Below are positions 12,237 through 34,262 of a stretch of 64,000 nucleotides of DNA, piece by piece. Where the stretch lies: positions 4,202-68,201 of the IMG/VR virus record IMGVR_UViG_3300048590_000360. One strand, written 5' to 3'. Source of the stretch: a virus. The translations under genes were made by a program, and so were the position numbers. How positions within the stretch are numbered: position 1 is the first letter of the stretch; every line of letters begins with the position of its first letter. Under the pieces are notes generated by a model that was given only the letters and a program-made list of their open reading frames with translations, ran no database searches and was not told the origin of the DNA.

Positions 12237-15200
12237 TTACGTATTCATCTCTGATGGTTCATATCTAATAGCAGCAGCGAAAAGTTTTTGTTCACCTTCT
12301 GTTGTGCTTTGTAACGTCACTGTAATAGAGTGACACCTTATATCGTCTCCGTTAATTAGGGGTAAGTCTATGTTTGGTGTATTTGCGTCTTGGAGTAAAG
12401 ATGCTTTGTGGACACCCTCAAAGGTTTCAAAATCTTCACCAATTAGAGAACTACTTTGACCGAATTGATTTTCAATAAGTGGACATTCCCATACTTCAGA
12501 CGATTCTACCAATATATTCTTAAAGAATTTAATGATTGTAGGATTGTCATTGAACACTACTGTAATAGAAGATGGGGTAAATTGTCCCCTGAATGTATTA
12601 GGTAAGCCCACTCCATGCTTGTATAGTCTCCCGTTCCAGAATGAAATATAAGTTGAAGGTATGTTTTGTAATTGTTCACTATCATAAGAATATGATGTAG
12701 TCCACCGGTTTTTAGATTCACTGAATGTTATTGTAATACCGTCAATATCTTTAATTGCATTTGATAACGATACGTTTACTTGTGACGGACGAACACCTTC
12801 TGGACGTGTACTATTGTCAGTGGTAATTTGTATCTGTTTGTATATAGGTTCAAAGGATAGAATATATTCCTTCCTTTCACTAACGTATACGCCATGCACA
12901 TAGAATTTCCTTCCAGAAGATACCCTGTCATTGAATACCTTGTTAAATAATGCTGACATAAGGTAACTATTCTGTACAGCATCATGGTTAGAATCTATTC
13001 TTTCTATCCCAGAATTAAAGTTCATTCTTAGCACGGCACCCCTATTGGCATCTGTGAAGTATATATTTGCACCGTACTGCGCGAATGATTCAGGGTTGGT
13101 GCTGATACCGTATTCTAATCCATAGTAATTCATTTTAGAAATCACTGTAAGTTCTGAACTTATATCTCCTACTACGCCCCCAGAAGCAGAAAATAAAACA
13201 TCCTTATTCACCAATGCAAAGCCAACCTTATTTTCTTGGAATATTACTACACGTTCCCCTTGTGAGTATGCTTTCTGAATGTGGCCATAAGCATGATTGA
13301 AAGTCTTAGTACTTTCTGGGAAGAAGTTACTAAGTCCATCAATTTGTGTTTCTGGAATGTATAGTTCGCTCCAATATACAGTTACGGGTCTATGGATTTT
13401 TCTTAATAATTTATCTACATTATTTCCACGTCCTTTACTCCATACGTTTGAAGTATAAAAGTCTGATTGGGAAAAATCTTCGACAAGGTAGTCCAATGGG
13501 TCTGTGAACCCGATTGCCAAATAATTATATCTTCTTGGCCTAATCCATATATCACCGTCATAGATATCAATAATTGCCGGTTGTAATGCAGTCTGATTCT
13601 GTAATGAACCTTTGTGTAATCCGTTTTCAATTTTATATGTGTTTCCTATTTCGTAATATAGTTGGTTTTCTGATACCTTTTTTGGCGTGTAAATTTCAAC
13701 CATGTTTCCAATAGTAATCTTCATGGTATTTGTTTCGTCTGCTGCCACGGTAATTTCTGAAGTACTTTCATCGAAAGAAAGTATTTCATATTCATAGAAT
13801 GATGAATACACTTGTCCTGTAGAAGATGTCGGATTAAACCATACAGATCGAATCTTATCACCTTTAGTATATGTGTAGGATAATAGTGGCCGGGAATCAT
13901 AAGCATCATTAAACTGTTGCAAGGTGCCTATGAATATTTTGTATCTATTATTGGCCTGTGCTGTAACTGTACCAACTCTCGTCCATACAAACCTTGCTGT
14001 TTGATTGTTCCCTGCATATACTGGCGCGTAATGTGTCGCCCATTCTGGAGGTGAATGGTGAAGTTCCATACGAATGAAGTTCCTTCCGATGGTACCTATT
14101 TCTGTCGGGAATGGGGCATATGGCATAAAACTACGGTTGGTCTGTACCTTCCCATATCTTCCTGCATAATCGTAATACACTAATCCTACAGGGTGCGTGG
14201 AACCTGACTTAAAGGAAGGGGATACTCTTACCCGTGACGATGTGTTGTTGACGTTTACCTGGGTAACTATTGATTCGGTGTAATTAAGTGGGTATATAGA
14301 TGTAACAGGGTCTGATGTATTGATTATCGTTTTAATGATTATTCCATATCCTGAAGTAAACGGTACAGCTTGGCAAGAAATTACAGATGAGGTACCAAAC
14401 ACGGAACCAGTTAGTATTTTAGGCAGTAATGTAGAATCCGTATTTAGTTTGTTGATGATGTTACTGATTAACAATCCTAAGTTTGGGAATGTTTCTTCGG
14501 ATGAAGTAACAATGTGCGTATATTTAACTGTTATGTCTTTTGTTTTGTAAACATTCGCTGCACTTGGAGTCTCAATGTTTAGATACTTAATTTCTAACTT
14601 AAATTGAATATCAATAAGGTCGTTTTCAAAGAATGTTCCAGAGAAGTAAATATCTAAGTCTGAAATTTTTTGACCGTTAAGTCCTGAAGGTATGCCTCCT
14701 ATTACATCTATTGTCGTAGAATCGGTGTTCTTTGTGTATAATGGTGTGTCCCCTGATACTTGGTCTATGTTACTTATTCGTTCACCGGAACCGTATATTC
14801 TACCTTGTTCAATATTGAACTGTTGGTCGTCAAGTGATATAATACTTGCGAAGGAACTTCCTAAGTCAATATTATCAAAACCTTCAGTAATATTAAAGTA
14901 ACCTAACCTTTGCCCGTCTAACAGGCATTGTTCCTTTGCAAGTAACGGTACAAAGTCATAGGGTTTATTTACCTCTGTTTGGGAAAGTAAAGTTAAAGTC
15001 CGGTCATTGTAGAAGGGATATGTGTATGTTGAAAAATCTATTGGGGCAATACCGTCAACCCATGTAGAAGAATCATCTTTATTAATGGTATCCACCAGGT
15101 AAAAGTCTCCAGAGTTACCATACCTAACACACACATTTATCTTTCTTATCGCTGAGTCACCTGTTTCAAAGGTAATGTTCAATACATTGTTCTGATAGTT

Positions 15201-15881
15201 GTTATATGTGGCGTTGATTCTGTCATAGGAATCTGTTAGCGGTGGCGCGGATACTTTAGATATAGTAGAATATGCAGACCTTTTATTGTCCCAATCGACG
15301 AATTGTGTCCTGAATTGAAATACATTACCTTTTAAGTTGTTGAATTTCTTTGACGAATCCGAATCATAGTTAAGTGATGGGGGTAATACCGGTTGTGGGA
15401 CAATATTGTTTATGTATCTTTCGGTAAGTAATGAGGGATACATCCCTGACTTGGCTCGTTGAATATTAATACATCTTGGATGCCCGTTCCCATCAGTGAA
15501 ATATAATAGACCATTAAGAACAAAAGGTGTAACAATAAGGTAGTCAAGATTAAAGTTTAGAACTTTAGATTCAATGAGTATTGTAATGTCATTAAGCACA
15601 ACGTCATATTCAAATATTGAATGTTTGGCGTTTGAATTGTAAAGGAAGTAGTAAACTTTGTTGTTTATATCATCAAGGCATGAGCCGATAACCTTATTAG
15701 CTCCAGATGGTAGTACGGTATCAATTAATAGGTCGCCATTAACATGTTGGACTGTTCCAACAGCTTTGTCCTGATTACCTGAGTTTTCAATATTGACTGC
15801 GAACCTATAGTCACCTTGTTTTACGGTTCTATCATCTGAATCGGAGTCCATTCCTCCAAAGAATATCCTTTTCTCTAACAT
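12237..15881 (-). CDS. large virion structural protein (tail / receptor-binding candidate)
   Basis: 1214 aa from the ATG at 15881 (MLEKRIFFGGMDSDSD..), 4 nt after TATCTTTG. Beta-rich and Asn/Ser/Thr/Tyr-rich throughout. Confidence 0.6.
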   Translation of the reverse strand: MLEKRIFFGGMDSDSDDRTVKQGDYRFAVNIENSGNQDKAVGTVQHVNGDLLIDTVLPSGANKVIGSCLDDINNKVYYFLYNSNAKHSIFEYDVVLNDITILIESKVLNFNLDYLIVTPFVLNGLLYFTDGNGHPRCINIQRAKSGMYPSLLTERYINNIVPQPVLPPSLNYDSDSSKKFNNLKGNVFQFRTQFVDWDNKRSAYSTISKVSAPPLTDSYDRINATYNNYQNNVLNITFETGDSAIRKINVCVRYGNSGDFYLVDTINKDDSSTWVDGIAPIDFSTYTYPFYNDRTLTLLSQTEVNKPYDFVPLLAKEQCLLDGQRLGYFNITEGFDNIDLGSSFASIISLDDQQFNIEQGRIYGSGERISNIDQVSGDTPLYTKNTDSTTIDVIGGIPSGLNGQKISDLDIYFSGTFFENDLIDIQFKLEIKYLNIETPSAANVYKTKDITVKYTHIVTSSEETFPNLGLLISNIINKLNTDSTLLPKILTGSVFGTSSVISCQAVPFTSGYGIIIKTIINTSDPVTSIYPLNYTESIVTQVNVNNTSSRVRVSPSFKSGSTHPVGLVYYDYAGRYGKVQTNRSFMPYAPFPTEIGTIGRNFIRMELHHSPPEWATHYAPVYAGNNQTARFVWTRVGTVTAQANNRYKIFIGTLQQFNDAYDSRPLLSYTYTKGDKIRSVWFNPTSSTGQVYSSFYEYEILSFDESTSEITVAADETNTMKITIGNMVEIYTPKKVSENQLYYEIGNTYKIENGLHKGSLQNQTALQPAIIDIYDGDIWIRPRRYNYLAIGFTDPLDYLVEDFSQSDFYTSNVWSKGRGNNVDKLLRKIHRPVTVYWSELYIPETQIDGLSNFFPESTKTFNHAYGHIQKAYSQGERVVIFQENKVGFALVNKDVLFSASGGVVGDISSELTVISKMNYYGLEYGISTNPESFAQYGANIYFTDANRGAVLRMNFNSGIERIDSNHDAVQNSYLMSALFNKVFNDRVSSGRKFYVHGVYVSERKEYILSFEPIYKQIQITTDNSTRPEGVRPSQVNVSLSNAIKDIDGITITFSESKNRWTTSYSYDSEQLQNIPSTYISFWNGRLYKHGVGLPNTFRGQFTPSSITVVFNDNPTIIKFFKNILVESSEVWECPLIENQFGQSSSLIGEDFETFEGVHKASLLQDANTPNIDLPLINGDDIRCHSITVTLQSTTEGEQKLFAAAIRYEPSEMNT

Positions 15882-15885
15882 GAAA

Positions 15886-15893
15886 CAAAGATA
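15886..15893 (-). promoter_or_regulatory. -7 box TATCTTTG, 4 nt from ATG
   Basis: Minus strand reads TTTTTTTGTATCTTTGtttcATG, directly after a terminator hairpin. Confidence 0.5.
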
Positions 15894-15894
15894 C

Positions 15895-15922
15895 AAAAAA
15901 AGGGTGGGAACCACCCCACCCT
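15895..15922 (-). terminator. rho-independent terminator
   Basis: Minus strand: AGGGTGGG-gtggtt-CCCACCCT followed by T7, downstream of 15949..16167. Confidence 0.7.
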
Positions 15923-15948
15923 AATTTAAACCAAGGAAACCATAGAAA

Positions 15949-16167
15949 TTACACATAGGTACGTGTGGAGAAACACAAAAGTTTCGACGGATTGGAAAAA
16001 TCTTTGAATATTTTTTCTGCTTCAGTGTAGTTGTCTGCATAACAAGTGAATAATACCTGTTGAATTTTGAGATTGTTTTTGGCAGCGTATTCTTTACATA
16101 GACTTAATTCAGATGCGTCTTTTACCTGTGTGCCAGACTTAATTAGGAAAGTAAATTTCTCAGCCAT
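15949..16167 (-). CDS. hypothetical protein
   Basis: ATG at 16167 (MAEKFTFLIK..), 4 nt after TATCTTTG. Confidence 0.55.
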   Translation of the reverse strand: MAEKFTFLIKSGTQVKDASELSLCKEYAAKNNLKIQQVLFTCYADNYTEAEKIFKDFSNPSKLLCFSTRTYV

Positions 16168-16456
16168 GGAGCAAAGATACAAAGATTAATATTTGGCGAA
16201 CTTCTCTTTTTGTGAAGTGAATCTTTGATTCACCAGACTTGTCGGAAATTGTCATTGATCCGTTTTTGAAAGTGATATTCCCATTATCTAACGTCATGTG
16301 GTGTGTTTTTGTGGGTATTTCAGGAAAATGGTGAAGCATCTTTATTGCTGATTCAATTCCCATGGTTATGTCTTTAGGGTTTGGTTGTGGTATTTTTGCC
16401 CCTGTGCGCCATTTGTTGTAAGTCATCAATGTTAGTAAGGTTTCTTTCTTATTCAT
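16160..16456 (-). CDS. hypothetical protein
   Basis: ORF in the minus-strand gene train, overlapping its neighbours by a few nt. Confidence 0.55.
   Translation of the reverse strand: MNKKETLLTLMTYNKWRTGAKIPQPNPKDITMGIESAIKMLHHFPEIPTKTHHMTLDNGNITFKNGSMTISDKSGESKIHFTKREVRQILIFVSLLHG
16172..16179 (-). promoter_or_regulatory. -7 box TATCTTTG, 4 nt from ATG
   Basis: Minus strand reads TATCTTTGctccATG. Embedded in the 3' end of the upstream ORF. Confidence 0.4.
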
Positions 16457-17066
16457 TATTTAGGTCAGTTAAGTTCATCCATGATATAATACCTGTATCA
16501 GATTTTCCCGTTTTAACATCGTCTAACGGATTCTTCTGTAGTCTCTGTAGTCTTGCTACTTCTTTTTTCTTTTTCTTGGCATATAGTGCTTCTAATTTCT
16601 TTTGCGCATCGGCTTTTTTTGCTAAGAATGTCTTTTGTGTTTGAATATTCCAATAGTACTGTTTGTAGGATTGCCATTCGGGTCTTGAATTGATATACCG
16701 GATAGCCCAATATGCCAATTCTTCAATCGAAATATTCAATTCAAATTGTAGTAATTTCTGAATCTGTTTAGCTACGTCAGGTTCAATCATAATCTCAATC
16801 TTGTGAGTTCTTTTCTGGTTTATGCCTTGGTTCCATTTTTTCTGTGGACGGGGCATGAACATCCCTGTGAACTTTACTACTTTAGTGTAGTCAGTGTATT
16901 CGTCCATTCCTTCAGGCAACCATTCGTAGTATGCTTTATTACTTTCGGGGAGTTGGGTATTGGTGAATTCTTCTAACATATCAGCACGTTTTCTCAGTGC
17001 GTCAACAACGTCCAACACATCATCCCTGAAAATAGGGACCTTAGACGGTTTTATTTTACGTCTCAT
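16449..17066 (-). CDS. hypothetical protein
   Basis: 205-aa ORF with a Lys-rich coiled-coil-like C-terminal half. 4-nt overlap with the upstream gene. Confidence 0.6.
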   Translation of the reverse strand: MRRKIKPSKVPIFRDDVLDVVDALRKRADMLEEFTNTQLPESNKAYYEWLPEGMDEYTDYTKVVKFTGMFMPRPQKKWNQGINQKRTHKIEIMIEPDVAKQIQKLLQFELNISIEELAYWAIRYINSRPEWQSYKQYYWNIQTQKTFLAKKADAQKKLEALYAKKKKKEVARLQRLQKNPLDDVKTGKSDTGIISWMNLTDLNNE

Positions 17067-17254
17067 TTGGCGAAGTTATGGTTAATTATCTTCCGGATAT
17101 ACGTAGTGAATGTTTCTTCAGTTATGTTTGACTTCACCATTAATGATATTATTTTGAAATTTTTCTGGATGAATTCCTTTGCACGGGAAGGATTTGTGAT
17201 AGTAATTTCCCTTGTTGCAAGTCTGATGGCTTCTTTGAATGTGATTGGTTCCAT
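17063..17254 (-). CDS. hypothetical protein
   Basis: 63-aa ORF, translationally coupled (ATGA overlap) to the next gene. Confidence 0.5.
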   Translation of the reverse strand: MEPITFKEAIRLATREITITNPSRAKEFIQKNFKIISLMVKSNITEETFTTYIRKIINHNFAK

Positions 17255-17276
17255 AGTTTATTGATTTAGTTATTGA

Positions 17277-17543
17277 TTACGGTAATTTACTTTTTAAGGT
17301 TTCAGTTTTATAGACTAATTCATACGGTGTTGTTGCCATTGGTTTACCTAGTATTGAATCACAACCTAAAGGTACGAAGGTTAATTGGTATGCAGAATCC
17401 GGACAGCATTGGCATGGTGTGATTGTCTGGGATGTTATTGGCGCGTGGGTAACTGTACATTCTTCCGTTGTATGGCGCGTATTAATCCAAATATGGCCTA
17501 ATACTATAACAATAAGGAATAAGACTGCTGAAGTAGTTTTCAT
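17277..17543 (-). CDS. hypothetical membrane/secreted protein
   Basis: N-terminal hydrophobic segment SAVLFLIVIVLGHIW; Cys-rich. Confidence 0.5.
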   Translation of the reverse strand: MKTTSAVLFLIVIVLGHIWINTRHTTEECTVTHAPITSQTITPCQCCPDSAYQLTFVPLGCDSILGKPMATTPYELVYKTETLKSKLP

Positions 17544-17773
17544 GATAATGGTAAGTTAGGTAACGGCATCCAATGAGTCACTCTATAATCATCATCAACG
17601 TAGGCATCCCCGTCAAGTCCATCGTATGACTGCCCCCACAACCAATCTGATATATGATTATCTGGGACGTAACACCTTGCCATGATACGGATCTTATTAT
17701 CCACCACAGCTAATACATTAGTATTACCTTTGGGAAGGGAATGTTCTACGGGAATCCATTGATTATTTATCAT
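17540..17773 (-). CDS. DUF551-like phage protein
   Basis: WIPVEHSLP ... VTHWMPLPNLP pattern, typical of DUF551. Confidence 0.5.
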   Translation of the reverse strand: MINNQWIPVEHSLPKGNTNVLAVVDNKIRIMARCYVPDNHISDWLWGQSYDGLDGDAYVDDDYRVTHWMPLPNLPLS

Positions 17774-17774
17774 T

Positions 17775-18062
17775 TCACTTCTGATTTACATTTGGCCTGC
17801 GCCCAACCACGGCCCCATCTTCTGGGGTGTAGAAGGTAGTCATCACCCATTCAGGGTTGTCGAAACCTACTTGTACCGGTGGACGTTCACTCCACCTAAT
17901 GGATGGGTCTTGCTGCTTCGCTGCGTAGTACTTCGTGAGTAGCTTAGAAGCCCTTAGTGTATTCGTGCCGCAGATTTCCGCTAACCGCTTTTGGCTTAAA
18001 TCCGGGCAGTCGGTGTGCAACCTCACCAGTTGCTTCGTTAGAATTATCGCTGATTCGCTCAT
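17775..18062 (-). CDS. hypothetical protein, possible HTH
   Basis: ATG at 18062 (MSESAIIL..); the longer form needs TTG. SQKRLAEICGTNTLRASKLL is HTH-like. The GC-richer island starts here. Confidence 0.5.
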   Translation of the reverse strand: MSESAIILTKQLVRLHTDCPDLSQKRLAEICGTNTLRASKLLTKYYAAKQQDPSIRWSERPPVQVGFDNPEWVMTTFYTPEDGAVVGRRPNVNQK

Positions 18063-18103
18063 TTTGATTGGTATTAAAAGGCCGCATCCCGTTATAAGCA
18101 ATG

Positions 18104-18295
18104 TTAAAGGTGGTCAACCTCAAGTTTTTGCCAAGTTTTACCATCGGTAGTAAACTCATTCTTGCACAAATCATAAACTACCATTCCGACATCAGGATTA
18201 AAATGATTCTCAGTGTCAAACCAAGCTGTTAGGAATGGCAACTTTACTTTGGTTGTAATTAAGTATCTCATAATCAAAAACACTGCTGCCAACAT
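18104..18295 (-). CDS. hypothetical protein
   Basis: 63-aa ORF, ATG at 18295. Confidence 0.45.
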   Translation of the reverse strand: MLAAVFLIMRYLITTKVKLPFLTAWFDTENHFNPDVGMVVYDLCKNEFTTDGKTWQKLEVDHL

Positions 18296-18303
18296 TCGTT
18301 TAC

Positions 18304-18336
18304 CGCAAGTGGGGGTGACAGCGTTAAACCCACTTG
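18304..18336. repeat. perfect 9-bp stem hairpin GCAAGTGGG..CCCACTTGC
   Basis: Read directly, between 18412..18648 and 18104..18295. Confidence 0.7.
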
Positions 18337-18411
18337 CAGTTTTTCAATTTAACTTTCGGTTCGGCAACTTCGCCAAGCTGCAAAACGTTTAGCCAATGCC
18401 TCCGGCACGGT

Positions 18412-18648
18412 TCATTGGTTCACGTTCAACCCTATCTCTGCAAGGTTAAGCATCTTATCCATAGCTCGCAGGCTCATCAACTGCATCGCTGCACGGTGTT
18501 CTTTTATGGCCACGTATAGAGTGTACAGTACCTCCCTTTCCACTGATGCCGTTCCATCGGCTAACTCCTTGCGAATAGCGACGTGCCATTCATTGAAGCT
18601 CACCTGCTCCGGCGGGTGAACTGTGGACTGGATTTTTAGTTTGCTCAT
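18412..18648 (-). CDS. hypothetical protein
   Basis: 78-aa ORF with its own -7 box upstream. Confidence 0.5.
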   Translation of the reverse strand: MSKLKIQSTVHPPEQVSFNEWHVAIRKELADGTASVEREVLYTLYVAIKEHRAAMQLMSLRAMDKMLNLAEIGLNVNQ

Positions 18649-18674
18649 AAAATGGTTTTGGCAGTGATACGCAC

Positions 18675-18682
18675 CAAAGTTA
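18675..18682 (-). promoter_or_regulatory. -7 box TAACTTTG preceded by TTTGAAAC x2
   Basis: Minus strand reads TTTTTTTGAAACTTTTTGAAACCTTTATAACTTTG, 26 nt before the ATG at 18648. Confidence 0.45.
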
Positions 18683-19076
18683 TAAAGGTTTCAAAAAGTT
18701 TCAAAAAAAATTAAAAAAAGTTCTTTTTTGAAATATCTTTTGGCGCGGATGAATTCAGGAACCAATTTTTCCCTTCGTCCTTTCTATGTACATCCATAGT
18801 GAAAACCCGACAAAAAACTGTGGATATATCTCAAAAAACGGTTTCTATATACCGGAACCATAGTAAGACGCGGATACTTTAACCAAACACACATAAAGCA
18901 TTGGTTTAAACATAACTTATACATCATCACTTAAAGTAATACTCAAACCAATACAACCCTTCGTCCTCTCCCATAGCACCTTTCACTATCACCTTTCAAC
19001 GTCCCCTGTTCATCAGTTATCGTTTAACGGTTGTGTGTGTATTATTTGTATGTGTATCTTTCATAAGATAAGGCAC

Positions 19077-19104
19077 AAAAAAAAGGCTCCCCTTTCTGGG
19101 AACC
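19077..19104 (-). terminator. rho-independent terminator after radC-like gene
   Basis: Minus strand: GGTTCCC-agaaa-GGGGAGCC (one G.T pair) followed by T8. Confidence 0.6.
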
Positions 19105-19128
19105 TTGGCGCGGGGAATATGACGCGTG

Positions 19129-19575
19129 TTATAACACTCCGTGATCAGCGAATGAGTAATAAGCCTCTGCCGTTAATATACAATGGTCAATAACTTGCAC
19201 ATCAAACAGATTTAGTGCATCTTTTATCTTTCTGGTTATTTGAATGTCCTGTTCCGACGGTTTCAAATTGCCAGATGGATGGTTATGCGCAATAATAACG
19301 GCAGCGGCCAAGGAATCTAATGAGAATTTAGCAATTAGTTTGATGTCGACAACGGTTCCATAGCATCCTCCTTGTGAAATTTTAACATAACCGGTGACGT
19401 TGTTGGCGCGGTTTAAAGTAATTAAAAAGAAACTTTCATACACGTCTATATCACAGCCCCAAAACTGGCGCATAAATTCGACACTATCCAAAGACCTGGT
19501 AATTTTTACTGAATTCATGTCCGTGGTTACTTTTTGAAGTTTGAATTCTGAAATGGTTTTTTTAAATGGTTTCAT
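19129..19575 (-). CDS. radC: RadC-like JAB/MPN domain protein
   Basis: AHNHPSG.L.PS..D motif (JAMM-like H-x-H-P-S-G) and the size and layout of the RadC family. Confidence 0.85.
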   Translation of the reverse strand: MKPFKKTISEFKLQKVTTDMNSVKITRSLDSVEFMRQFWGCDIDVYESFFLITLNRANNVTGYVKISQGGCYGTVVDIKLIAKFSLDSLAAAVIIAHNHPSGNLKPSEQDIQITRKIKDALNLFDVQVIDHCILTAEAYYSFADHGVL

Positions 19576-19685
19576 GGTTTCTAATTTTTAAAGTTTGTTT
19601 ATTAAAACTGCGATTCCTAAGAAAAGGAGCCCAAAGCATGTAAGAATAGCGCAGAGCACCAGGAATGAAATTAATCGGCGCATGG

Positions 19686-20336
19686 CTAACAAACAAATTG
19701 ATTTGATGCACCAGACATTCCAACATTTTTAGCAAATGGCGCATTATTCCATTTATCAAAATCAAACTGGGATATTCTTTCGGCATCTGCAATAGATACG
19801 TGAATATTAAATCTATTGCAGCTCAAGTCCGGATGAAAGAGCTCATATACATTCCCATCTTCGGATTTAGCGAATACATAACATTTACCGGTAGCATATA
19901 GCAGTTTTGCGTCTTCGATAGATATTTTTAATGTATTTGCCAGTGTTTCAGGGGAAAATTCTTCTCCTTCAGGGATTTCAACGTGGTTTTCGTGGATTGA
20001 ATAAACTCCTAATTTTTTAGCAGCCTTTAACCGTATGGCGCGTGCTTTGTTATTCCTTTTTATTTCCCTTCTATTTTTTAAGGACTCCTTCTTCCGGACC
20101 GCAAGTTCTTTTAATTTTTCCTTAAGCATAGCAGGAGTAACGGTAATCTCTATCATTTCGTGCCGGATGGAACTATTATATTTGGTTCCCCTACCTTGGT
20201 ACCATTGCCTGTCATCGAAGAAGAAAATACTCCCGTCAGGCATTAAAATGCGTTGGGTACCTTTCATTTTTAGCGTGTAAGTTTTTTTAAAGTTCTCTTC
20301 AACAAATTGTCTGGTTATTTCTGTTCTATTTTTCAT
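19686..20336 (-). CDS. hypothetical protein co-oriented with radC-like gene
   Basis: 216-aa ORF with a central Lys/Arg-rich helix. Start context AGAAACCATGAAA is shared with radC. Confidence 0.6.
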   Translation of the reverse strand: MKNRTEITRQFVEENFKKTYTLKMKGTQRILMPDGSIFFFDDRQWYQGRGTKYNSSIRHEMIEITVTPAMLKEKLKELAVRKKESLKNRREIKRNNKARAIRLKAAKKLGVYSIHENHVEIPEGEEFSPETLANTLKISIEDAKLLYATGKCYVFAKSEDGNVYELFHPDLSCNRFNIHVSIADAERISQFDFDKWNNAPFAKNVGMSGASNQFVC

Positions 20337-20356
20337 GGTTTCTTGGTTTTTAAAGG

Positions 20357-20434
20357 TTAATTAAATTTATAAACATAACATTTCATCTCCATCGCCAGCA
20401 TCCAGCGGACACCGTAAATCTTTTTTGGTTTCAT
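20357..20434 (-). CDS. possible 25-aa micro-ORF
   Basis: Shares the 17-nt start context TAGAAACCATGAAACCA with radC (19567-19583 vs 20426-20442). Otherwise unsupported. Confidence 0.2.
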   Translation of the reverse strand: MKPKKIYGVRWMLAMEMKCYVYKFN

Positions 20435-20656
20435 GGTTTCTATTTTTTAGTTTTGGTTTATAGTACATATACGCCATCATCTCATAAATAGTTTCAAAAA
20501 AAATAAAAAAAACTTAAAAAACTTTCAGGTATCTAAAACTCAAGCGCAAAAACTTGGCGCGTGAACAACAAATAACATTACACACCAGGTAAAAAACAAA
20601 ACAGTAAGACAAAACACATATAAATATATCTTTCCTTCAGTTCCTTTCACCAGGTC

Positions 20657-20740
20657 ATTTCCTTCGGTGTCCTTCCTTCGGTGTCCTTCCTTCGGTGTCC
20701 TTCCTTCGGTGTCCTTCCTTCGGTGTCCTTCCTTCGGTGC
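20657..20740. repeat. 14-bp tandem repeat CCTTCCTTCGGTGT x6 (iteron-like)
   Basis: Six head-to-tail copies; the first and last are slightly degenerate. Lies in ORF-free DNA. Confidence 0.9.
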
Positions 20741-20821
20741 ATCAGCGCATTAGCTAATATTACAACAAAGTAGAACGAGTCCGCGGAACGTAGATCGTAA
20801 CGGGGTTAAACCTTTTGTTGT

Positions 20822-20829
20822 TATCTTTG
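20822..20829 (+). promoter_or_regulatory. plus-strand -7 box TATCTTTG with no ORF downstream
   Basis: Matches TAnnTTTG. No ORF above 30 aa follows for about 900 nt on the plus strand. Confidence 0.3.
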
Positions 20830-21741
20830 TACCTGGCACCGGCTAAATGAATCCTTCAACGTGCTGACACTAAAGTACTCATAACATGCATTATGTTAAA
20901 TAGGGATTTTTGTAACCGATTAAAAACTAACGTGTTATATTATTGTCTATACAAGAGTTGTTTTATAACGGGTGAAAAGAAAATATAAAACATTGATTTT
21001 CAAGGATGAACAAAGCAGTGTTATTTTGTCGTGAAAATTCGTTAAAAGGTGGTGTAAAACGGGGAAAGGTGCGGACGGCTGCAATACGTTAAATGTACTG
21101 CGTTATCGTTGCGCGGTTGGTGTCGGGATATAGGTTGAATGGTTTGGCTGTGTTAAAACCGATTTAAATCATATTTTAACGTATCCTTGCTGCGGTGTAT
21201 CTTCTCGGAATGTACCCCATGCCCCTCTGAATCCCGTTTCCTTTTTCGCACATCCCCCCTTCAATGCCATATAACCCCTTGACTGGACCGTTACGTATGA
21301 GATTCAATGGGGTTATTGAGGGATACTGCAGGATGGTGTTTGAAGGAATTGGTATTGGTGAAAGGGGCTGTGTGGAATTGTGATTTGCTTGATGGGTATG
21401 TGGGGTGTCACTGTATTATTGAATTATTTGTTTAAGTGACATTGCATAACTATGTAATTTTCTGGGGTGTTATGTGTTATTACTTAAAGTAATTGTTTAA
21501 TAGTTGTGTGTGTTGATTGGTTGTTTGGTGGTAGGCTTCCAACGGTTTGTTGGTGTTTTATTGGGGGCTGATTGACACTAAGTATGTGATTTTGAGGTAT
21601 GGTTATTTTTTGTGATTTGGTGATAGGATTCCAATAATGACGTGGTATTGAATATTTTTTTTGTTTAATATATACTATGGTGAGTTCTGCTACAAGCTAC
21701 GACACATTTCATTAGTGGGTTCATTCGTAAGCTGTTGTTGA

Positions 21742-21789
21742 TTATAATAGATATTTCAGTTTTTGTACAACGATTTTGTAAATGTCCAT
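21742..21789 (-). pseudogene. 5' stub of the tyrosine recombinase gene (14 identical codons, then L-stop)
   Basis: MDIYKIVVQKLKYL is identical at DNA level to codons 1-14 of 43262..44053. Confidence 0.85.
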
Positions 21790-21834
21790 GCTGTAACCCC
21801 TTATTTTATTGGTATTGTTGTTATATGGTAGTTA
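21748..21834. repeat. 87-bp perfect direct repeat, copy 1 (attI-like junction of array A)
   Basis: Base-for-base identical to 44012..44098. Ends in GTTA of GTTATCGG. Confidence 0.95.
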
Positions 21835-21843
21835 TCGGCAACC

Positions 21844-22206
21844 CTAAGCGGACACCACAAACAATTCAGTTCCATATAGAGAATAGAAAATATTTTGTAG
21901 TTCGTGGACATATTGTAAGTCTGTTAAAACTAATTGACAAACAAAATTGCCTTGAATAAATCTAAATTTATCATCAGCAGTTGATATACCTACATTGTTG
22001 TCTTTGTTGTAAAATTTATCTTGTATTTTGCTGTTTGTAAATCCAAAATCGGTGAGCCATTTATCAGTTAGTTTTACAGGATAAAATGGTTTGTCTAATT
22101 CATTTTGTAAGTACATTGCGAATAAAGAGCCATCCAACTTTATAATATCTTCGTTAAAAGAAACATAGTTTCCTACTCTTATTTGTGTTGCGTTTAAATA
22201 TTTCAT
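21844..22206 (-). CDS. cassette ORF A1, hypothetical
   Basis: 120-aa ORF. TAG stop 13 nt from the junction core. Confidence 0.6.
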   Translation of the reverse strand: MKYLNATQIRVGNYVSFNEDIIKLDGSLFAMYLQNELDKPFYPVKLTDKWLTDFGFTNSKIQDKFYNKDNNVGISTADDKFRFIQGNFVCQLVLTDLQYVHELQNIFYSLYGTELFVVSA

Positions 22207-22255
22207 TTTTTATTTGTTTAAATTGTTAATAATCATTCCGAAAGAAGGGCAGCCG

Positions 22256-22341
22256 ATAACAGCGTATAAAGTAAACCGCCAATCCCCACCCACGTAGCCA
22301 ACGCAATTGTCGGCTTCCCTTATACGCAAAAGCGTTAGCGG
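22256..22341 (+). repeat. attC-like imperfect inverted repeat
   Basis: ATAAC-A-GCGTATAA..TTATACGC-AAAAGC-GTTAGCGG. Confidence 0.6.
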
Positions 22342-22349
22342 AAATGATT

Positions 22350-22592
22350 TTACCCACCCATATCTACAATAGTAGGTTTAATCGGTTCACCGCCAACCGA
22401 AGCGAATAGAGATAGTTTTTTACTTGGTTTACCATCTTCAACCATCCAAGCAATTGAACCGCAACAAGGCGTTGAACCTGTCCAGTTTTTTAATTGAGTT
22501 TTACATACGTTACATTCCACCCAAAAATCACTATCCGCTAACACATTATTTGCGTCAGTGGGGGTGTTGTTTTTCAAATCGTCGTTTTGCAT
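22350..22592 (-). CDS. cassette ORF A2, Cys-rich (zinc-ribbon-like)
   Basis: 80 aa with CNVCK..CCGS. Confidence 0.55.
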   Translation of the reverse strand: MQNDDLKNNTPTDANNVLADSDFWVECNVCKTQLKNWTGSTPCCGSIAWMVEDGKPSKKLSLFASVGGEPIKPTIVDMGG

Positions 22593-22616
22593 ATTATTAA
22601 AATTTAGTTTTTCAAA

Positions 22617-22670
22617 TTAACTGTGGTGGTGTAATGCCCCACCGAACGCAAATAATCGGCACGTTAGCAG
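22617..22670 (+). repeat. attC-like element (variant class)
   Basis: TTAAC-T-GTGGTGG..CCCCACC-GAACGCAAA..CAC-GTTAGCAG. The A3 stop TAA lies inside the core. Confidence 0.5.
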
Positions 22671-22906
22671 TCAGTTTGCCCCAAATCACCGTAAGGCTTT
22701 TGAAGTGCTTTACTACTAATAGCTATTTCTCCGTTAGGAAGTTCATTGCAATGGCAAACCGAACTGCTAACAGGCGGTTGGCGCAATACTTGTTTCATCG
22801 CTTCGATTAAAGTGTGGTACATTTCAGCATCGCTTACTTTGTCATTCTCGCTTTTCGGGTATCTATTGTCTATTACCCATTGTGCTATTTCTTGTATCGT
22901 TTTCAT
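22664..22906 (-). CDS. cassette ORF A3, hypothetical
   Basis: 80-aa ORF. Confidence 0.55.
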   Translation of the reverse strand: MKTIQEIAQWVIDNRYPKSENDKVSDAEMYHTLIEAMKQVLRQPPVSSSVCHCNELPNGEIAISSKALQKPYGDLGQTDC

Positions 22907-22946
22907 ATCAAAATTTTGTTTTAATTATTCGTACTGCGCCAACCGC

Positions 22947-22959
22947 CAAACCGTTATAA
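22947..22959 (+). repeat. hairpin-less boundary AAACC-GTTATAAC
   Basis: Core only, with the conserved 5-nt spacer. Confidence 0.35.
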
Positions 22960-22970
22960 CCAATAGGGGT

Positions 22971-23168
22971 TCAGTCCTTCGATTTAACATTTCGGTTGGC
23001 GGTTTTCTTATTTTTTTGCACACGCTCTTTGGTTTTTTCAAAACCATTAGATTTTGATTCTCGTTCCAAAATATCCTGTGCCAAGTTTTTAAAATCCGTG
23101 TTCTCATCAATGGCTCTCTTGCTCAATGATTTTACACATTCATCTGATAAATCAAGTAGTTTTTTCAT
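22971..23168 (-). CDS. cassette ORF A4, ribbon-helix-helix-like
   Basis: LDLSDECVKSLSKRAIDENTDFKNLAQDILE fits an RHH strand-helix-helix pattern. Confidence 0.45.
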   Translation of the reverse strand: MKKLLDLSDECVKSLSKRAIDENTDFKNLAQDILERESKSNGFEKTKERVQKNKKTANRNVKSKD

Positions 23169-23604
23169 ATCCTTTATTTAGTATTTTTCTACAACTTTCC
23201 GCGTCCTTTCCGTTTGGTTGGTGTTTTAGTTTCCACAAAGAACTACTTGCGTAATGTTTTGCCAAACTTTCGCACTTTTCAAATGGAACAATAGTATAGA
23301 TATACGAAGTAATCTCTATACTGCTTTCGGTATTACCGCCAAACATAGCTTCGCTTTCTTCAACACAACAAGATAAAACTGGTTCACTTTCATTATCTTC
23401 AAATTTTATCACTGAAAGTTCTTTAATTACATCACTTATTGTAGTAGATTTTAATTGTACATTCTTTTCTTTTTTATCAAACCAATGAATGTAATTACGA
23501 TGTAGTGTAGTAAAATCACGTTTTTTCAAAAGCTCAATAGCTTCATTCCTACTTTTAGTAGTTGATTTTAGGTAATGCTGATATACTATTTCTTCTTGTG
23601 TCAT
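23152..23604 (-). CDS. cassette ORF A5, hypothetical
   Basis: 150-aa ORF overlapping A4 by 17 nt. Confidence 0.55.
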   Translation of the reverse strand: MTQEEIVYQHYLKSTTKSRNEAIELLKKRDFTTLHRNYIHWFDKKEKNVQLKSTTISDVIKELSVIKFEDNESEPVLSCCVEESEAMFGGNTESSIEITSYIYTIVPFEKCESLAKHYASSSLWKLKHQPNGKDAESCRKILNKGYEKTT

Positions 23605-23615
23605 AATCGTTATTT

Positions 23616-23906
23616 TTAAAGGGTTTTAAAGTAGTTAAGTAATTGATTAAAATACTTCCCGTAATACTCAATAGCATAGCCATTCATATAAGCAGGTTTT
23701 ACACTTTCTCTTTGTGAGGCAACCACATTAATTCCTAAAGTTTTTGCTGCAAAATCAACAAAGTTTTCAAGTTTGGTGTCGAGCCATTTAATATCACAAT
23801 CCCTAAATTCTCCTTTATTTAATTGGTTTATTATTTTAGTAATCGGGTCTATTAAAGAAACTTCGATAATAAACTGGTCAATTGCTGTGTTGTTTGTTGC
23901 TTTCAT
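23616..23906 (-). CDS. cassette ORF A6, hypothetical
   Basis: 96-aa ORF behind the -7 box at 23931. Confidence 0.55.
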   Translation of the reverse strand: MKATNNTAIDQFIIEVSLIDPITKIINQLNKGEFRDCDIKWLDTKLENFVDFAAKTLGINVVASQRESVKPAYMNGYAIEYYGKYFNQLLNYFKTL

Positions 23907-23930
23907 TTTGTTTCGTTTTTAATTCTGATA

Positions 23931-23938
23931 CAAATATA
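23931..23938 (-). promoter_or_regulatory. -7 box TATATTTG
   Basis: 24 nt before the ATG at 23906; TTTGAAAC lies upstream. Confidence 0.4.
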
Positions 23939-24091
23939 TACCATATATACGATATATACAAGTAAAAGTTTCAAATATTTTAAAACTAACTGATTTTCAA
24001 AGAGAATAATTTTTAAATCCCTCCCTAAAAAAATAAGAAAACTGCTGTTTCTGCTCCGAATTTGGCTTTGTGCTAAACAATCCCTACTGGT

Positions 24092-24146
24092 TATAACAGC
24101 ACATTGGCGGCATTAAAACGACCGCCAATCTGCATCACGTTGTATG
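24092..24146 (+). repeat. attC-like imperfect inverted repeat
   Basis: TATAAC-A-GCACATTGGCGG-cattaaaacga-CCGCCAATCTGC-ATCAC-GTTGTATG. Confidence 0.6.
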
Positions 24147-24489
24147 CAATTATGGCGCAAAAGACCAGGTAAATAGCCAAATATTTTTAGTAAATAGTGA
24201 GTTTAGGATTAGAAAATGACTTAATTTTTGTCAAGCCTTGCAAAGTAGATTTGCTGAAAAGTATTTTCAAAGCGAATTACGCTAAAAGGCTTGCAAAGGT
24301 ATTAGAAAAAAAAGACAAAGTCAAATTTTTATTCTAATACGATCATAAACTGCTATTTATTAAAGAGATGGCTTGGTTTGTAAAAGACTAATCTTATCCC
24401 TTTGGGGCATAAGACCAATATTTTTCAATCATTTAACTAGGTTTTTTGCGGCATAACTGGGACTGTTTTCATAACTTAGCCGAGTTAGA

Positions 24490-24572
24490 ATAACAGCACA
24501 CAACAACAGGTTTGTTCAATGCCTGCCGCCGGCGCAACACAGGCACTGCACAAACCTGCTATACGTTAGGTG
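24490..24572 (+). repeat. attC-like imperfect inverted repeat
   Basis: ATAAC-A-..CAGGTTTGT..ACAAACCTGC-TATAC-GTTAGGTG, with an inner TGCCTG/CAGGCA stem. Confidence 0.55.
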
Positions 24573-24612
24573 CAATAAAAAATAAATTTCCCACCGCACC
24601 AAACTAACAACA

Positions 24613-24879
24613 TTAATCCTTCTTTTTAGAGTATTGAAAAACCAATTGGTTGGCAATGTGGTTAAACTCTAAATTGTTTTTGTCATCGCCTGTAATCTTA
24701 TTGAAAAGATGCGTAGGCATAATGTTTGCCAACGCGTGGAAAAAATGCGTAAGGTTATCGCCTTCTTGTAATTCTTGTTGGTCAATGTGAAAATCACTTT
24801 CGCTATCTTCATCAAAGAGTTCCGCAATTTTTCCACTTAACATTGCCGCATAATGTAAATGTTTTTCGGTCTGTGCCAT
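24613..24879 (-). CDS. cassette ORF A7, hypothetical
   Basis: 88-aa acidic ORF. Confidence 0.55.
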   Translation of the reverse strand: MAQTEKHLHYAAMLSGKIAELFDEDSESDFHIDQQELQEGDNLTHFFHALANIMPTHLFNKITGDDKNNLEFNHIANQLVFQYSKKKD

Positions 24880-24928
24880 AATTGAAATTTGTTTTAAAAG
24901 CCCACGCTAAATTTATTTTTTACAGACA

Positions 24929-25027
24929 CCTAACAGCAGGTAGGCAAAATGCCGCTATGAGCCTGAGTGCTTTGATATTTACATTTGTGGTAAGCGTCAC
25001 TATCGCCTACCTGCAAACCGTTAGCGG
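24929..25027 (+). repeat. attC-like imperfect inverted repeat
   Basis: (A)CCTAAC-A-GCAGGTAGGC..59 nt..GCCTACCTGC-AAACC-GTTAGCGG. Confidence 0.65.
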
Positions 25028-25033
25028 AAAATG

Positions 25034-25369
25034 CTACATCCACTCATCCAACGGAACATTTTTAGTTTTAAATTTTTTGCCTTGAACTGTTAGCACGTAG
25101 TCAAAATTTGCTCTTTGCCAATTACTTTGGTGTATCAACCCCATTCTAACCAATCGAAACAAAATAGACGAATTAAATGTGAACTCACCTTTTGCAGAAC
25201 AACAAGTAACTGTTGATGTACAAGATTGTGTTATCAATTGCCATCCATTTTGAAGACAAAAAACAATCATATTTTGTTTTGGAGTTAGTTTTAATTTAAC
25301 CGCATCATCCGCTAACACGTGTTTTGCGTCAGGCGGGGTTTCGTGGTTAATTGCAGTTTGTGTTTTCAT
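25034..25369 (-). CDS. cassette ORF A8, hypothetical
   Basis: 111-aa ORF. Confidence 0.55.
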   Translation of the reverse strand: MKTQTAINHETPPDAKHVLADDAVKLKLTPKQNMIVFCLQNGWQLITQSCTSTVTCCSAKGEFTFNSSILFRLVRMGLIHQSNWQRANFDYVLTVQGKKFKTKNVPLDEWM

Positions 25370-25397
25370 AATTTAATTTTGTTTAAGTTGAAAGTTT

Positions 25398-25443
25398 GCG
25401 GTTTTCAAACCCGCCCGAACGCAAAGCACCTTAACGTTGTAGG
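25398..25443 (+). repeat. attC-like element (variant class)
   Basis: GCGGTTT-tc-AAACCCGC then CCGAACGCAAAGCACCTTAAC-GTTGTAGG. Confidence 0.45.
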
Positions 25444-25454
25444 CAATTGCCTTG

Positions 25455-25688
25455 CTATAAAAGCGTATTGCCACATTTTCCGCAAAAGTCTTGAACTTTA
25501 CTGTTTACCCTGTTATTTTCGCAATCGCAAGGCAACTGTTCGCTTCGCCCTACAACAGGGGCTATATGTAATACTTGGATCATTGCTTCGTAAATAACTT
25601 CAAGTTGATTTGAGTTAAATTCTTGCTCAACGCTTGTAAAGTTTCCAAATGTATTTAATGCTTCTAATAATATTTTTTCTTTATCCAT
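25455..25688 (-). CDS. cassette ORF A9, hypothetical (C-terminal CxC..CxxC)
   Basis: 77-aa ORF. Confidence 0.55.
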   Translation of the reverse strand: MDKEKILLEALNTFGNFTSVEQEFNSNQLEVIYEAMIQVLHIAPVVGRSEQLPCDCENNRVNSKVQDFCGKCGNTLL

Positions 25689-25733
25689 TTCTATTAAGTT
25701 TTATCGTTAATAAATCGTACTACATATAGCCCC

Positions 25734-25746
25734 AAACCGTTAGCTG
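25734..25746 (+). repeat. hairpin-less boundary AAACC-GTTAGCTG
   Basis: The A10 stop TAA lies inside the core. Confidence 0.35.
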
Positions 25747-26003
25747 CAAGCTGGCAGACTAATCCACGCAATAACGCTTCCGTTTGTATGTTGTGGTCGC
25801 ATATCATTAACCCAAACAATTACCCGATTATCTTCAAGCCTTAAATGACATACATCCATTTTACCATAGTCGGTTAATATTAGCACTGGTTTACCAAATT
25901 CGGGTAATTGTTTTTCTACTGGAATCCAGCCAGCAGCTAACACAGTATTGCCGACAATTGCGGGTTCTGTGGTAGGTTCAACTTTTTGTTTTTTATTGTT
26001 CAT
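25740..26003 (-). CDS. cassette ORF A10, DUF551-like
   Basis: WIPVEKQLP ... VIAWISLP pattern. Confidence 0.5.
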   Translation of the reverse strand: MNNKKQKVEPTTEPAIVGNTVLAAGWIPVEKQLPEFGKPVLILTDYGKMDVCHLRLEDNRVIVWVNDMRPQHTNGSVIAWISLPACS

Positions 26004-26036
26004 TTGTGCAAATTTTGAAGTTTTTTAATTCTAATT

Positions 26037-26069
26037 CCGCAACTGCGGCAATACTCGGAACGTTAGCAC
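26037..26069 (+). repeat. attC-like element (variant class)
   Basis: CCGCA-ac-TGCGG hairpin, then ..CGGAAC-GTTAGCAC. Confidence 0.45.
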
Positions 26070-26074
26070 CAATA

Positions 26075-26308
26075 CTACGAGTGTGCTGCAAAAACCTGAT
26101 TATCCCTTAATCGTATTTGTTCTCTTATCTTTTCGGCTAATTGTTCTACTTCGTCAGAATAAGAACATATAACAGTTCCGTCCTCTTTTTTTAAGGCTAT
26201 AGGCATTGCGTTTGCGTATAAGTCAAATAGTGCCTTAAATAGTTCTTTTCTGTGGCTATCATTCAAAATAGCTTCTCTTTGTTTTTGGTAATATTTTTGG
26301 TCTTTCAT
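26075..26308 (-). CDS. cassette ORF A11, hypothetical
   Basis: 77-aa ORF. Confidence 0.55.
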   Translation of the reverse strand: MKDQKYYQKQREAILNDSHRKELFKALFDLYANAMPIALKKEDGTVICSYSDEVEQLAEKIREQIRLRDNQVFAAHS

Positions 26309-26344
26309 TCTATTTATATTTTGTTGTTAATAATCCGTACTGGT

Positions 26345-26408
26345 GCTAACAGCAAATAAGCAAAACTCCGCTATCGCTACGCTTCGCCTATTTGCAAACC
26401 GTTAGCGG
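26345..26408 (+). repeat. attC-like imperfect inverted repeat (type example)
   Basis: GCTAAC-A-GCAAATAAGC-24 nt-GCCTATTTGC-AAACC-GTTAGCGG. The A12 stop TAA lies inside the core. Confidence 0.7.
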
Positions 26409-26719
26409 TCATTGCCGCCAAGCCCAAGTCCCTTAATTATCCTTTCCATAAAGTCGCCACTTTTTTTCACATCGCAAGTTTCGTTAAACCATTTTTCGTC
26501 CTCTTCATTTTCAGGAAAAACAATGTTGCACCTCATAGCAGTTTCCCTTAGAAGCGGCAACGAACCGCTAACATCGGGTTGGGCTAAATTTTTATTGGCT
26601 ACGAGTTGCGCGTATTCGGAAAGGATAATTGATACTTTCCCTTTCGTGTAGAACTCTTCCCCTTCATCATTAGTATAGTCTGGTGTCCACATTTTCAAAA
26701 CTTCCATTTCTCTTGTCAT
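26402..26719 (-). CDS. cassette ORF A12, hypothetical
   Basis: 105-aa acidic ORF. Confidence 0.55.
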   Translation of the reverse strand: MTREMEVLKMWTPDYTNDEGEEFYTKGKVSIILSEYAQLVANKNLAQPDVSGSLPLLRETAMRCNIVFPENEEDEKWFNETCDVKKSGDFMERIIKGLGLGGNDR

Positions 26720-26777
26720 GCTATTTATATTTAGTCGTTAATAATCCGCCAATAAAAACTTCGCCAACCCGTCCACC

Positions 26778-26827
26778 GTTATAGCACATTAAAACGATGC
26801 TATAACAGCGCATAAGAGAAGTTAAGG
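26778..26827 (+). repeat. core hairpin GTTATAGCA-11 nt-TGCTATAAC plus left arm of a 20-bp inverted repeat
   Basis: The left arm GCGCATAAGAGAAGTTAAGG pairs with 27111..27130. Confidence 0.65.
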
Positions 26828-27085
26828 CTTAGATAGTGCTTCGAGCAAAGATTCTGCATGAAGAACAGCCAACTCACTAATACCACTTGGTGAGAATGTC
26901 ATACTTCCTCCTTGTGTCATTCCTCCGTTACAATTTGCTAATAATCCTTGCATCGCTAATCCTGCAAAATACTCCTTCTTAGTTAAACCATATTGGGTAA
27001 AACTTCCATTAGGATCAAGCATAGAATCTATGTATTCTTTACCTTTAATTCTAGCATTCGTTTGCTGTTCTGTTTCCTTTTCCAT
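26822..27085 (-). CDS. cassette ORF A13, hypothetical
   Basis: 87-aa ORF lying wholly between the two arms of the 20-bp inverted repeat. Confidence 0.55.
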   Translation of the reverse strand: MEKETEQQTNARIKGKEYIDSMLDPNGSFTQYGLTKKEYFAGLAMQGLLANCNGGMTQGGSMTFSPSGISELAVLHAESLLEALSKP

Positions 27086-27110
27086 AATCTAATTTTTTTA
27101 ATTTGTTTCG

Positions 27111-27143
27111 CCTTAACTTCTCCTATGCGCCTACCGTTAGCGG
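27111..27143 (+). repeat. right arm of 20-bp inverted repeat + CTACC-GTTAGCGG
   Basis: CCTTAACTTCTCCTATGCGC, 19/20 complementary to 26808..26827. Confidence 0.65.
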
Positions 27144-27196
27144 CAAGCGTAGGACACCACTCCGAATAAACAGCATCCTACACAAACCGAAAAAGG

Positions 27197-27571
27197 CTAC
27201 ACAATTTCTCTCAAGTGCCGTAAATTGCTTTCTGCCTTTTCATTTAGGTCATTCAAACTGTAAAGCAAACGAATGATTTCTTCCGTTACGCTTTCGGGCT
27301 GTTTTTCTTCCATAGCTTCTTTAAGCGTTGAAGGTTCGTCATACCTTTTAATCGTTTGCAATTTGCTTTTAGTTTCGCATACAATACCATCGTAGCGATT
27401 TACGGCACTTTGTAACCTTTCGATAATCACATTCAATTCAGGTTGATGAACCGAAGTAGGCATATCTTCTGTTAATACTTCTGGCGCAATTTGAATTACT
27501 TTTTCATAATGCACTTCTCCACCCTGAGTTACTTTCAGAATGTCACCGATTTTCAATTTACTTTTGTCCAT
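27197..27571 (-). CDS. hypothetical protein (possible last unit of array A)
   Basis: 124-aa ORF. Its leader resembles the cassette leaders, and AAACCG motifs without TTA lie at 27184 and 27618. Confidence 0.55.
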   Translation of the reverse strand: MDKSKLKIGDILKVTQGGEVHYEKVIQIAPEVLTEDMPTSVHQPELNVIIERLQSAVNRYDGIVCETKSKLQTIKRYDEPSTLKEAMEEKQPESVTEEIIRLLYSLNDLNEKAESNLRHLREIV

Positions 27572-33879: not shown

Positions 33880-34262
33880 TAGACGTATTTTTCAAGGAAT
33901 GTCCCTGCATCGTTGTTTTGATTCCCTAATTGTGCTGAAGTATCTGGTGTGAGTTCCTTTTCAAGTAACTTCATTGTTTCAATCATCTTAGGCATCTTAT
34001 CAATGAGAATCATCACTCTGTCGAATGCTTTATCTGAACTTTTAGTTAAGGATGTATATGACAATAAATCAACTTCTTGTTCTTCCCCTTCATTGGATAT
34101 TGTTACAGGGTTATTAAGTAGTTCTCCTAATGCGTCTAATTGTTTTCTGAGTCCGTTGTATAACGAACCCATTGAACTTATCGCTGATAGGTTTCTAATG
34201 TGTAGAATCAGGATGTCAATATATTCCTGATCTGAACATTTTGGTGGCCGTTTAATGTTCAT
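33879..34262 (-). CDS. putative terminase small subunit (position only)
   Basis: 127-aa ORF directly upstream of and overlapping terL. Confidence 0.3.
   Translation of the reverse strand: MNIKRPPKCSDQEYIDILILHIRNLSAISSMGSLYNGLRKQLDALGELLNNPVTISNEGEEQEVDLLSYTSLTKSSDKAFDRVMILIDKMPKMIETMKLLEKELTPDTSAQLGNQNNDAGTFLEKYV

Follow-up and report, generated by a model that had tools for sequence, protein, structure and literature searches.

An integron-like insertion site present twice in a crAss-like phage and associated with a small Xer-type recombinase

An 87-bp perfect direct repeat in a crAss-like phage is interpreted, with fairly high confidence, as two copies of the insertion site (the attI equivalent) of an integron-like gene-cassette system. 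The system is associated with a small Xer-like tyrosine recombinase that lacks the domain thought to be essential for integrons, and no prior description of such a system was found in eight literature searches. The stretch analysed (hereafter the window) comprises 64,000 nucleotides of the IMG/VR virus record IMGVR_UViG_3300048590_000360. A 1,225-aa protein (12237-15914) with a Crassvirus muzzle C-terminal domain marks the genome as crAss-like; it also contains a giant 2,862-aa ORF (85-8673), and nearly all genes are on the minus strand. One copy of the repeat lies directly upstream of the intact recombinase gene, whereas the other is an orphan that kept the site and 14 codons, probably after an illegitimate duplication or truncation, and each copy heads its own array of small-gene cassettes separated by attC-like imperfect hairpins. 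The main features are as follows.

44054-44098: attI-like site of array 2, the 45 nt between the recombinase ATG and the crossover, which falls between G44095 and T44096; on the gene strand it reads ...TAAC|TACCATATAACAACAATACCAATAAAATAAGGGGTTACAGC-ATG.
43262-44053, minus strand: Xer-like tyrosine recombinase of 263 aa.
21748-21834: orphan copy, consisting of an attI-like site (21790-21834) plus the first 14 codons of the recombinase; the stub ORF is 21742-21789 on the minus strand.
21831-27571, minus strand: cassette array 1, with junction G positions at 21831, 22334, 22663, 22953, 24139, 24565, 25020, 25436, 25739, 26062, 26401, 26778 and 27136, giving 12 complete cassettes plus a terminal unit (27136-27571) without a hairpin or partner core.
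44095-47449, minus strand: cassette array 2, with junction G positions at 44095, 44390, 45064, 45831, 46106, 46456, 46756 and 47043, giving 7 complete cassettes plus a terminal unit (47043-47449) without a hairpin or partner core.
46365-46464, minus strand: example of an attC-like hairpin, reading on the gene strand ACGCCTAAC-gtttt-GCGTGTTTATG...CATAAACACGC-t-GTTAGCCGT.
22252-22342, minus strand: attC-like hairpin between cassettes 1 and 2 of array 1.
26778-26806, minus strand: ORF-less 29-nt mini-cassette, GTTATAGCATCGTTTTAATGTGCTATAAC on the gene strand.

The identity between 21748-21834 and 44012-44098 extends over exactly 87 bp, with different bases on both sides, and an exact 87-mer repeat in 64 kb is not expected by chance (on the order of 1e-43 by our estimate). 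Each copy consists of 45 nt upstream of the recombinase ATG plus codons 1-14 (44012-44053 in the intact gene); at 21.7 kb the reading frame continues with L-stop. On the other side, identity ends at ...GGTAGTTA, followed by TCGGC in one copy and GGTGC in the other, and in both copies the reverse-strand stop codon starts 13 nt after the G (21844 against 21831, and 44108 against 44095). The terminase large subunit (31789-33879) and glycosyltransferases lie between the copies. Contigs assembled from other samples cross both junctions: L031 covers 15480-22778 at 99.6%, L032 covers 21254-26929 at 100%, and L030 covers 33262-46878 at 100%, which excludes an assembly artefact as far as contigs, rather than reads, can show. 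Contigs from sample 3300048591 end at about 21254-21380, 26803-26929 and 46878; the first two pairs of contig ends overlap by 127 nt, as at assembly-graph branch points, and two of the three points lie inside the cassette arrays, which hints at population heterogeneity there. A 1.4-kb stretch just downstream of the stub (20337-21747) has no ORF longer than 45 aa, is C/A-rich on the gene strand and contains a 14-nt tandem repeat at 20645-20753 (GGACACCGAAGGAA on the gene strand), with a perfect run of 5 copies here, 3 in L031 and 6 in contig L034. Rfam and tRNA scans of the window gave no hits.

To the right of each copy lies an array of small minus-strand ORFs separated by 50-330-nt spacers. 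Read on the plus strand, away from the recombinase, a cassette consists of (i) a start TTRnnnnn, preceded by the junction G; (ii) the 3' end and body of one or a few genes encoded on the opposite strand; (iii) the reverse complement nnnnnYAAC; (iv) an imperfect hairpin that often contains the start codon and upstream region of the gene; and (v) a final G. A total of 17 cassette units have an exact 9-nt inverted core pair, strongly concentrated in the two arrays. The first cassette of each array joins the 87-bp repeat exactly at G|TTA, and its first 8-9 nt match its own inverse core (GTTATCGGC/GCCGATAAC and GTTAGGTGC/GCACCTAAC). No ORF crosses a junction, and four ORFs use the TAA of the core as their stop codon, ending exactly at the crossover (22664, 25740, 26402 and 45065), while at least ten ORFs run across the other core, with their start codon and first 15-45 codons inside the hairpin. 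A cassette is therefore self-contained only if it consists of the hairpin plus the downstream gene body on the gene strand; leaving attI on the plus strand, this is the canonical G|TT-cassette-G order, but with the gene inverted. The canonical reading, in which each gene is followed by its own hairpin, was rejected because ORFs would then be split at junctions and because insertions in Freya phages (see below) have the hairpin on the upstream side of the gene.

A Pfam search with 10 of the cassette proteins gave nothing significant, and tblastn against related arrays found few shared cassettes. Three paralogous small Cys-rich proteins (..EAM.QVL....V..CDC..; 22664-22906, 25455-25688 and 46772-46993) occur in separate cassettes, and in each the cassette-specific inverse core lies in the middle of the ORF at the same position, so that the N-terminal half is encoded inside the hairpin. 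Two small ORFs (45065-45271 and 47065-47250) are 91% identical and by eye resemble ribbon-helix-helix proteins; each is paired with a different upstream ORF of 99 or 68 aa in a toxin-antitoxin-like layout, one pair being a complete cassette and the other the terminal unit of array 2. The 426-nt unit at 24139-24564 has cores (with one mismatch) and a hairpin but no plausible minus-strand ORF. A conserved element (gene strand GATTATTAAC..AAAT.TAAATAG..ATG) lies just upstream of several cassette start codons, inside the hairpin loops (26294-26335, 26705-26746, 46979-47020 and others), and may be a cassette-borne promoter or translation signal.

On the gene strand, each hairpin site reads nnnnnYAAC, a 5-8 nt spacer that usually starts GGTT or GTTT, L'', a loop, L', a 1-4 nt spacer, and GTTRnnnnn. 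Of 79 candidate segments defined from the core chain alone in the window, six IMG/VR loci and phage Freya_10, 45 pair at 9 or more of 10 positions with their own partner arm, compared with 1.3% when arms from different sites are combined. Of these 45 L-box 10-mers, 39 are distinct, so the structure is conserved rather than the sequence. The 5' spacer exceeds the 3' spacer by 3-4 nt in 42 of 45, and no site fits the mirror register. Folded as single-stranded DNA, 9 of 13 sites have z-scores of -2.4 to -4.4, including the hairpins at 46365-46464 (-24.9 kcal/mol, z = -4.4, with an 11-bp perfect L stem and spacers of 5 and 1 nt) and 22252-22342 (-18.8 kcal/mol, z = -4.1).

The recombinase carries Phage_integrase and SAM_4 domains and the catalytic R..K..HxxR..H..Y motifs, and has no arm-binding domain. 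All of its best NCBIfam matches are below their cutoffs: XerA_Arch (169 bits, cutoff 220), the integron integrase model TIGR02249 (150 bits, cutoff 265, with the match split into two stretches), XerC (134 against 335) and XerD (133 against 330); NF011946 is likewise below its cutoff (97 against 435). The best structural-sequence match is Pyrococcus abyssi XerA (4a8e, E = 4e-37), whereas the alignment to VchIntIA (2a3v) breaks where IntI has its specific insertion, with 26 query residues (180-205) standing opposite 74 residues (186-259). It is therefore a simple Xer-like recombinase related to IntI, but not an IntI. A total of 5,536 proteins match it at E <= 1e-20, and the top hits are 263-287 aa (mostly 263-268) and 67-76% identical.

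Homologues at 40-76% identity occur in IMG/VR, ENA and Logan contigs of 12-210 kb, and all of them carry the motif YAAC|TAYYATATA 45-90 nt upstream of the start codon (about 15 relatives); most also have arrays of 9-nt core pairs, on that side only. One such contig, L161, has about 25 small ORFs in the 10 kb upstream. By contrast, among 80 bacterial loci at 35-61% identity only two MAG contigs, probably phage, have the motif; chromosomal homologues, all at 49% identity or less, lack both motif and arrays. No second attI copy lies within 10 kb on either side of the recombinase in 13 related loci. Exact attI pattern scans of IMG/VR and of metagenome contigs found nothing, this lineage being absent from those collections; a degenerate pattern gave 37 metagenome hits, all chance matches in unrelated coding sequence, and queries with the flanking 216-aa and 197-aa proteins found no related loci. 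Interestingly, the 29-nt mini-cassette is 100% identical in this phage and twice in a different phage contig, L001 (at 4485 and 7971), whose recombinase is 70% identical; a variant sits directly next to attI in contig L159 (1923 and 2070), and L161 has a 39-nt ORF-less unit in the same position.

Natural variation at the homologous junction was found in cultured Polaribacter phage Freya isolates, which are about 99.9% identical and were published as 44.0-48.9-kb genomes with "an integrase" (PMC8776804). Their recombinase is 39% identical to that of the window, and their attI, AAC|ACCCCTATAACAACAATAAG...CCAATAAAAT...ATG, is visibly homologous to the window's AAC|TACCATATAACAACAATACCAATAAAAT...ATG. 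Freya_1 and Freya_10 differ by a 4,942-bp block of 12 small ORFs inserted exactly between ...TTTACAAC and the attI; Freya_2 and Freya_5 are intermediate, and the four form a nested series with all endpoints at AAC|. Notably, Freya_6 equals Freya_5 plus one 472-nt unit that is absent from Freya_10, consisting of a hairpin with an ORF in its loop, then GTTGGTTGT, an ORF, and ACTACCAAC, and located exactly at AAC|attI. Flanking sequence is 99.5-100% identical and, whether read as insertions or excisions, every event ends at the predicted crossover, although junction cores share 5-8 nt, so that microhomology-mediated deletion could mimic some Freya deletions. The GenBank records start right at or beside the attI junction, their length differences are whole cassettes, and the published description treats the gene only as a lysogeny integrase and does not mention the variation. 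Each Freya genome has a single attI. Cellulophaga phage Ingeline has a similar site, TTGCTAAC|ACCCACATAAC.

Evidence for cassette mobility in the present phage comes from contig L033 (ENA ERZ28593730, an unrelated sample), which contains window 21831-22261 at 96% identity, bounded exactly by the two 9-nt cores and flanked on both sides by different hairpins instead of the attI; a further ENA contig places the same protein upstream of other small ORFs. The unit thus occurs in other array contexts. However, the hairpin upstream of the gene is not the one found in the window, which a simple model of strict co-inheritance of hairpin and gene does not predict; occasional recombination at the other core is one possible explanation. 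No variation at either attI was seen among the three samples that carry it, and no experiment or read-level data shows recombination in this phage.

By analogy with integrons and with tyrosine-recombinase chemistry, we propose that the recombinase bound to the R box (9 bp in the excised circle) cleaves the gene strand between A and C of YAA|C, which is G|TT on the plus strand, both at attI and in the folded hairpin, next to the 5-8 nt spacer that serves as the central region, thereby inserting or excising cassettes at attI. The opposite arm has only a 1-4 nt spacer, so a duplex form of that arm could not be a normal core site; together with the covarying L stems, this favours a folded single strand as the substrate, with one strand exchange and resolution by replication. 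Genes would be read by through-transcription along the single gene strand of the phage rather than from an integron Pc promoter. Catalysis by this recombinase and the use of single-stranded hairpins are inferred, and use of the orphan site in trans, also inferred, is only slightly more likely than not.

The first-pass annotation, which proposed that an attI-like site recombined at G|TTA with different attC-like partners and that the left boundary looks like an illegitimate breakpoint within the recombinase ORF, is supported on both points: the left boundary has no core-like sequence, and a breakpoint inside the ORF is the simplest reading. Its further argument, that lethal homologous recombination between the copies shows the duplicate to be kept for a reason, is not supported, since deletion products would simply be lost, an 87-bp repeat recombines rarely, and the single copy in Freya, the only relatives in which copy number could be compared, indicates that a second copy is not a general requirement. 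It also missed that the recombinase is not an IntI, that the cassette genes are inverted relative to canonical integron cassettes, and that the system is widespread in Bacteroidota phages.

Among alternative explanations, the one that survives best, although we consider it unlikely, is that the system is real but the 21.7-kb copy is an inert relic, in which a duplicated recombinase-attI-array module lost its recombinase gene, array 1 is now a fossil equivalent to a CALIN, and the 87 bp persist only because the event is recent. The left boundary without a core motif, the same first cassettes at the orphan site in the three samples, and the single site in Freya are consistent with this view. Nevertheless, the orphan keeps the whole 45-nt site intact and identical, its first cassette joins at exactly G|TTA with matching core logic, and a recombinase encoded 22 kb away on the same molecule can probably act in trans, as IntI does on CALINs. 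Moreover, the two arrays share no cassettes; if the duplication is as recent as 100% identity suggests, cassette turnover must have followed it, and Freya shows that such turnover outpaces point mutation. A second alternative, which appears very unlikely, is that the hairpins are intergenic terminators or REP-like elements, that the recombinase is an ordinary phage integrase or Xer-type resolvase, and that cassette-like differences arise by homologous or microhomology-mediated recombination between similar hairpin feet. The hairpins do lie between genes and would also form in mRNA, junction regions share motifs such as ATTGTTnCnAAC, and Bartlau et al. annotate the Freya gene simply as an integrase (PMC8776804). 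However, this does not explain the exact, unit-specific 9-nt complementarity between the two ends of each unit, the constant asymmetric spacer, the location of arrays only upstream of the recombinase, the conserved non-hairpin partner site at the array head in distant phages, or the gain of a novel 472-nt unit exactly at that site. Finally, an assembly chimera, suggested by a repeat shorter than a read and by the overlapping contig ends, is all but ruled out by the contigs from other samples that cross both junctions with both flanks.

A broader reading, which we regard as somewhat more likely than not, is that Bacteroidota phages (crAss-like, Freya- and Ingeline-type siphoviruses, and 100-200-kb contigs) carry their own integron-like gene-capture system, in which an Xer-like recombinase without the I2 helix recombines structured hairpin sites with a conserved attI, cassettes are mirror-oriented relative to bacterial integrons, and elements such as the 29-nt mini-cassette are shared between unrelated phages. 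It would represent either an independent invention of hairpin-based cassette capture or a surviving pre-IntI stage, and this genome would show that the platform can be multiplied by duplicating only the 45-nt site. The I2 helix is described as the innovation that enabled single-strand attC recombination (PMC7790495, PMC4792948), which counts against the proposed mechanism; conversely, a widespread phage system with the same cassette logic but without that helix challenges the idea that the helix is required, or offers a natural intermediate for testing how integrons arose. Such a system would give a concrete mechanism for the rapid turnover of small accessory genes, candidate anti-defence genes, in phages that include abundant crAss-like phages, and it is tractable because cultured Freya isolates already differ by single cassettes. 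In addition, these "integrases" are currently read as evidence of lysogeny, which may be wrong for these phages.

The closest known systems are integrons (Mazel 2006; PMC4889954), with which the present system shares a tyrosine recombinase gene with an adjacent attI at its 5' end, crossover at G|TT of a GTTR core, cassettes whose two ends are complementary because the site is split on integration, what appear to be attC-type imperfect-palindrome sites with R and L boxes, conserved in structure and variable in sequence, and cassettes that are mostly small genes of unknown function and differ in content between near-identical genomes. It differs from them in that the recombinase lacks the IntI-specific insertion and scores below the IntI model cutoffs, the cassette genes lie on the recombinase strand and point towards it, so that the hairpin sits at the 5' end of the gene, the spacers are 5-8 versus 1-4 nt, there is no evident Pc logic, the host replicon is a virulent-type crAss-like phage, and there are two attI copies and one recombinase. 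CALINs and attC sites have been reported in phage genomes, including flavobacterial (Polaribacter) phages (Qi et al. 2023, PMC9892861), and array 1 likewise has no adjacent intact recombinase; however, those were found with canonical attC models and tested with IntI1, no phage-encoded dedicated recombinase or attI was proposed, and phage P12002L has no homologue of this recombinase at E <= 1e-25. Xer recombinases (XerA/XerC/XerD) and the 'integron-like' subgroup of simple tyrosine recombinases (Smyshlyaev 2021, PMC8138268), in which the IntI insertion is noted as not fully conserved, have the same two-domain architecture and size, but here there is no dif-type site and the gene is tied to cassette arrays in phages. 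Shufflons and other multiple-inversion systems (Rci) also combine a single tyrosine recombinase with many short core sites in alternating orientation, but in the present arrays all genes stay on one strand, and the variants observed in Freya are insertions and deletions, not inversions.
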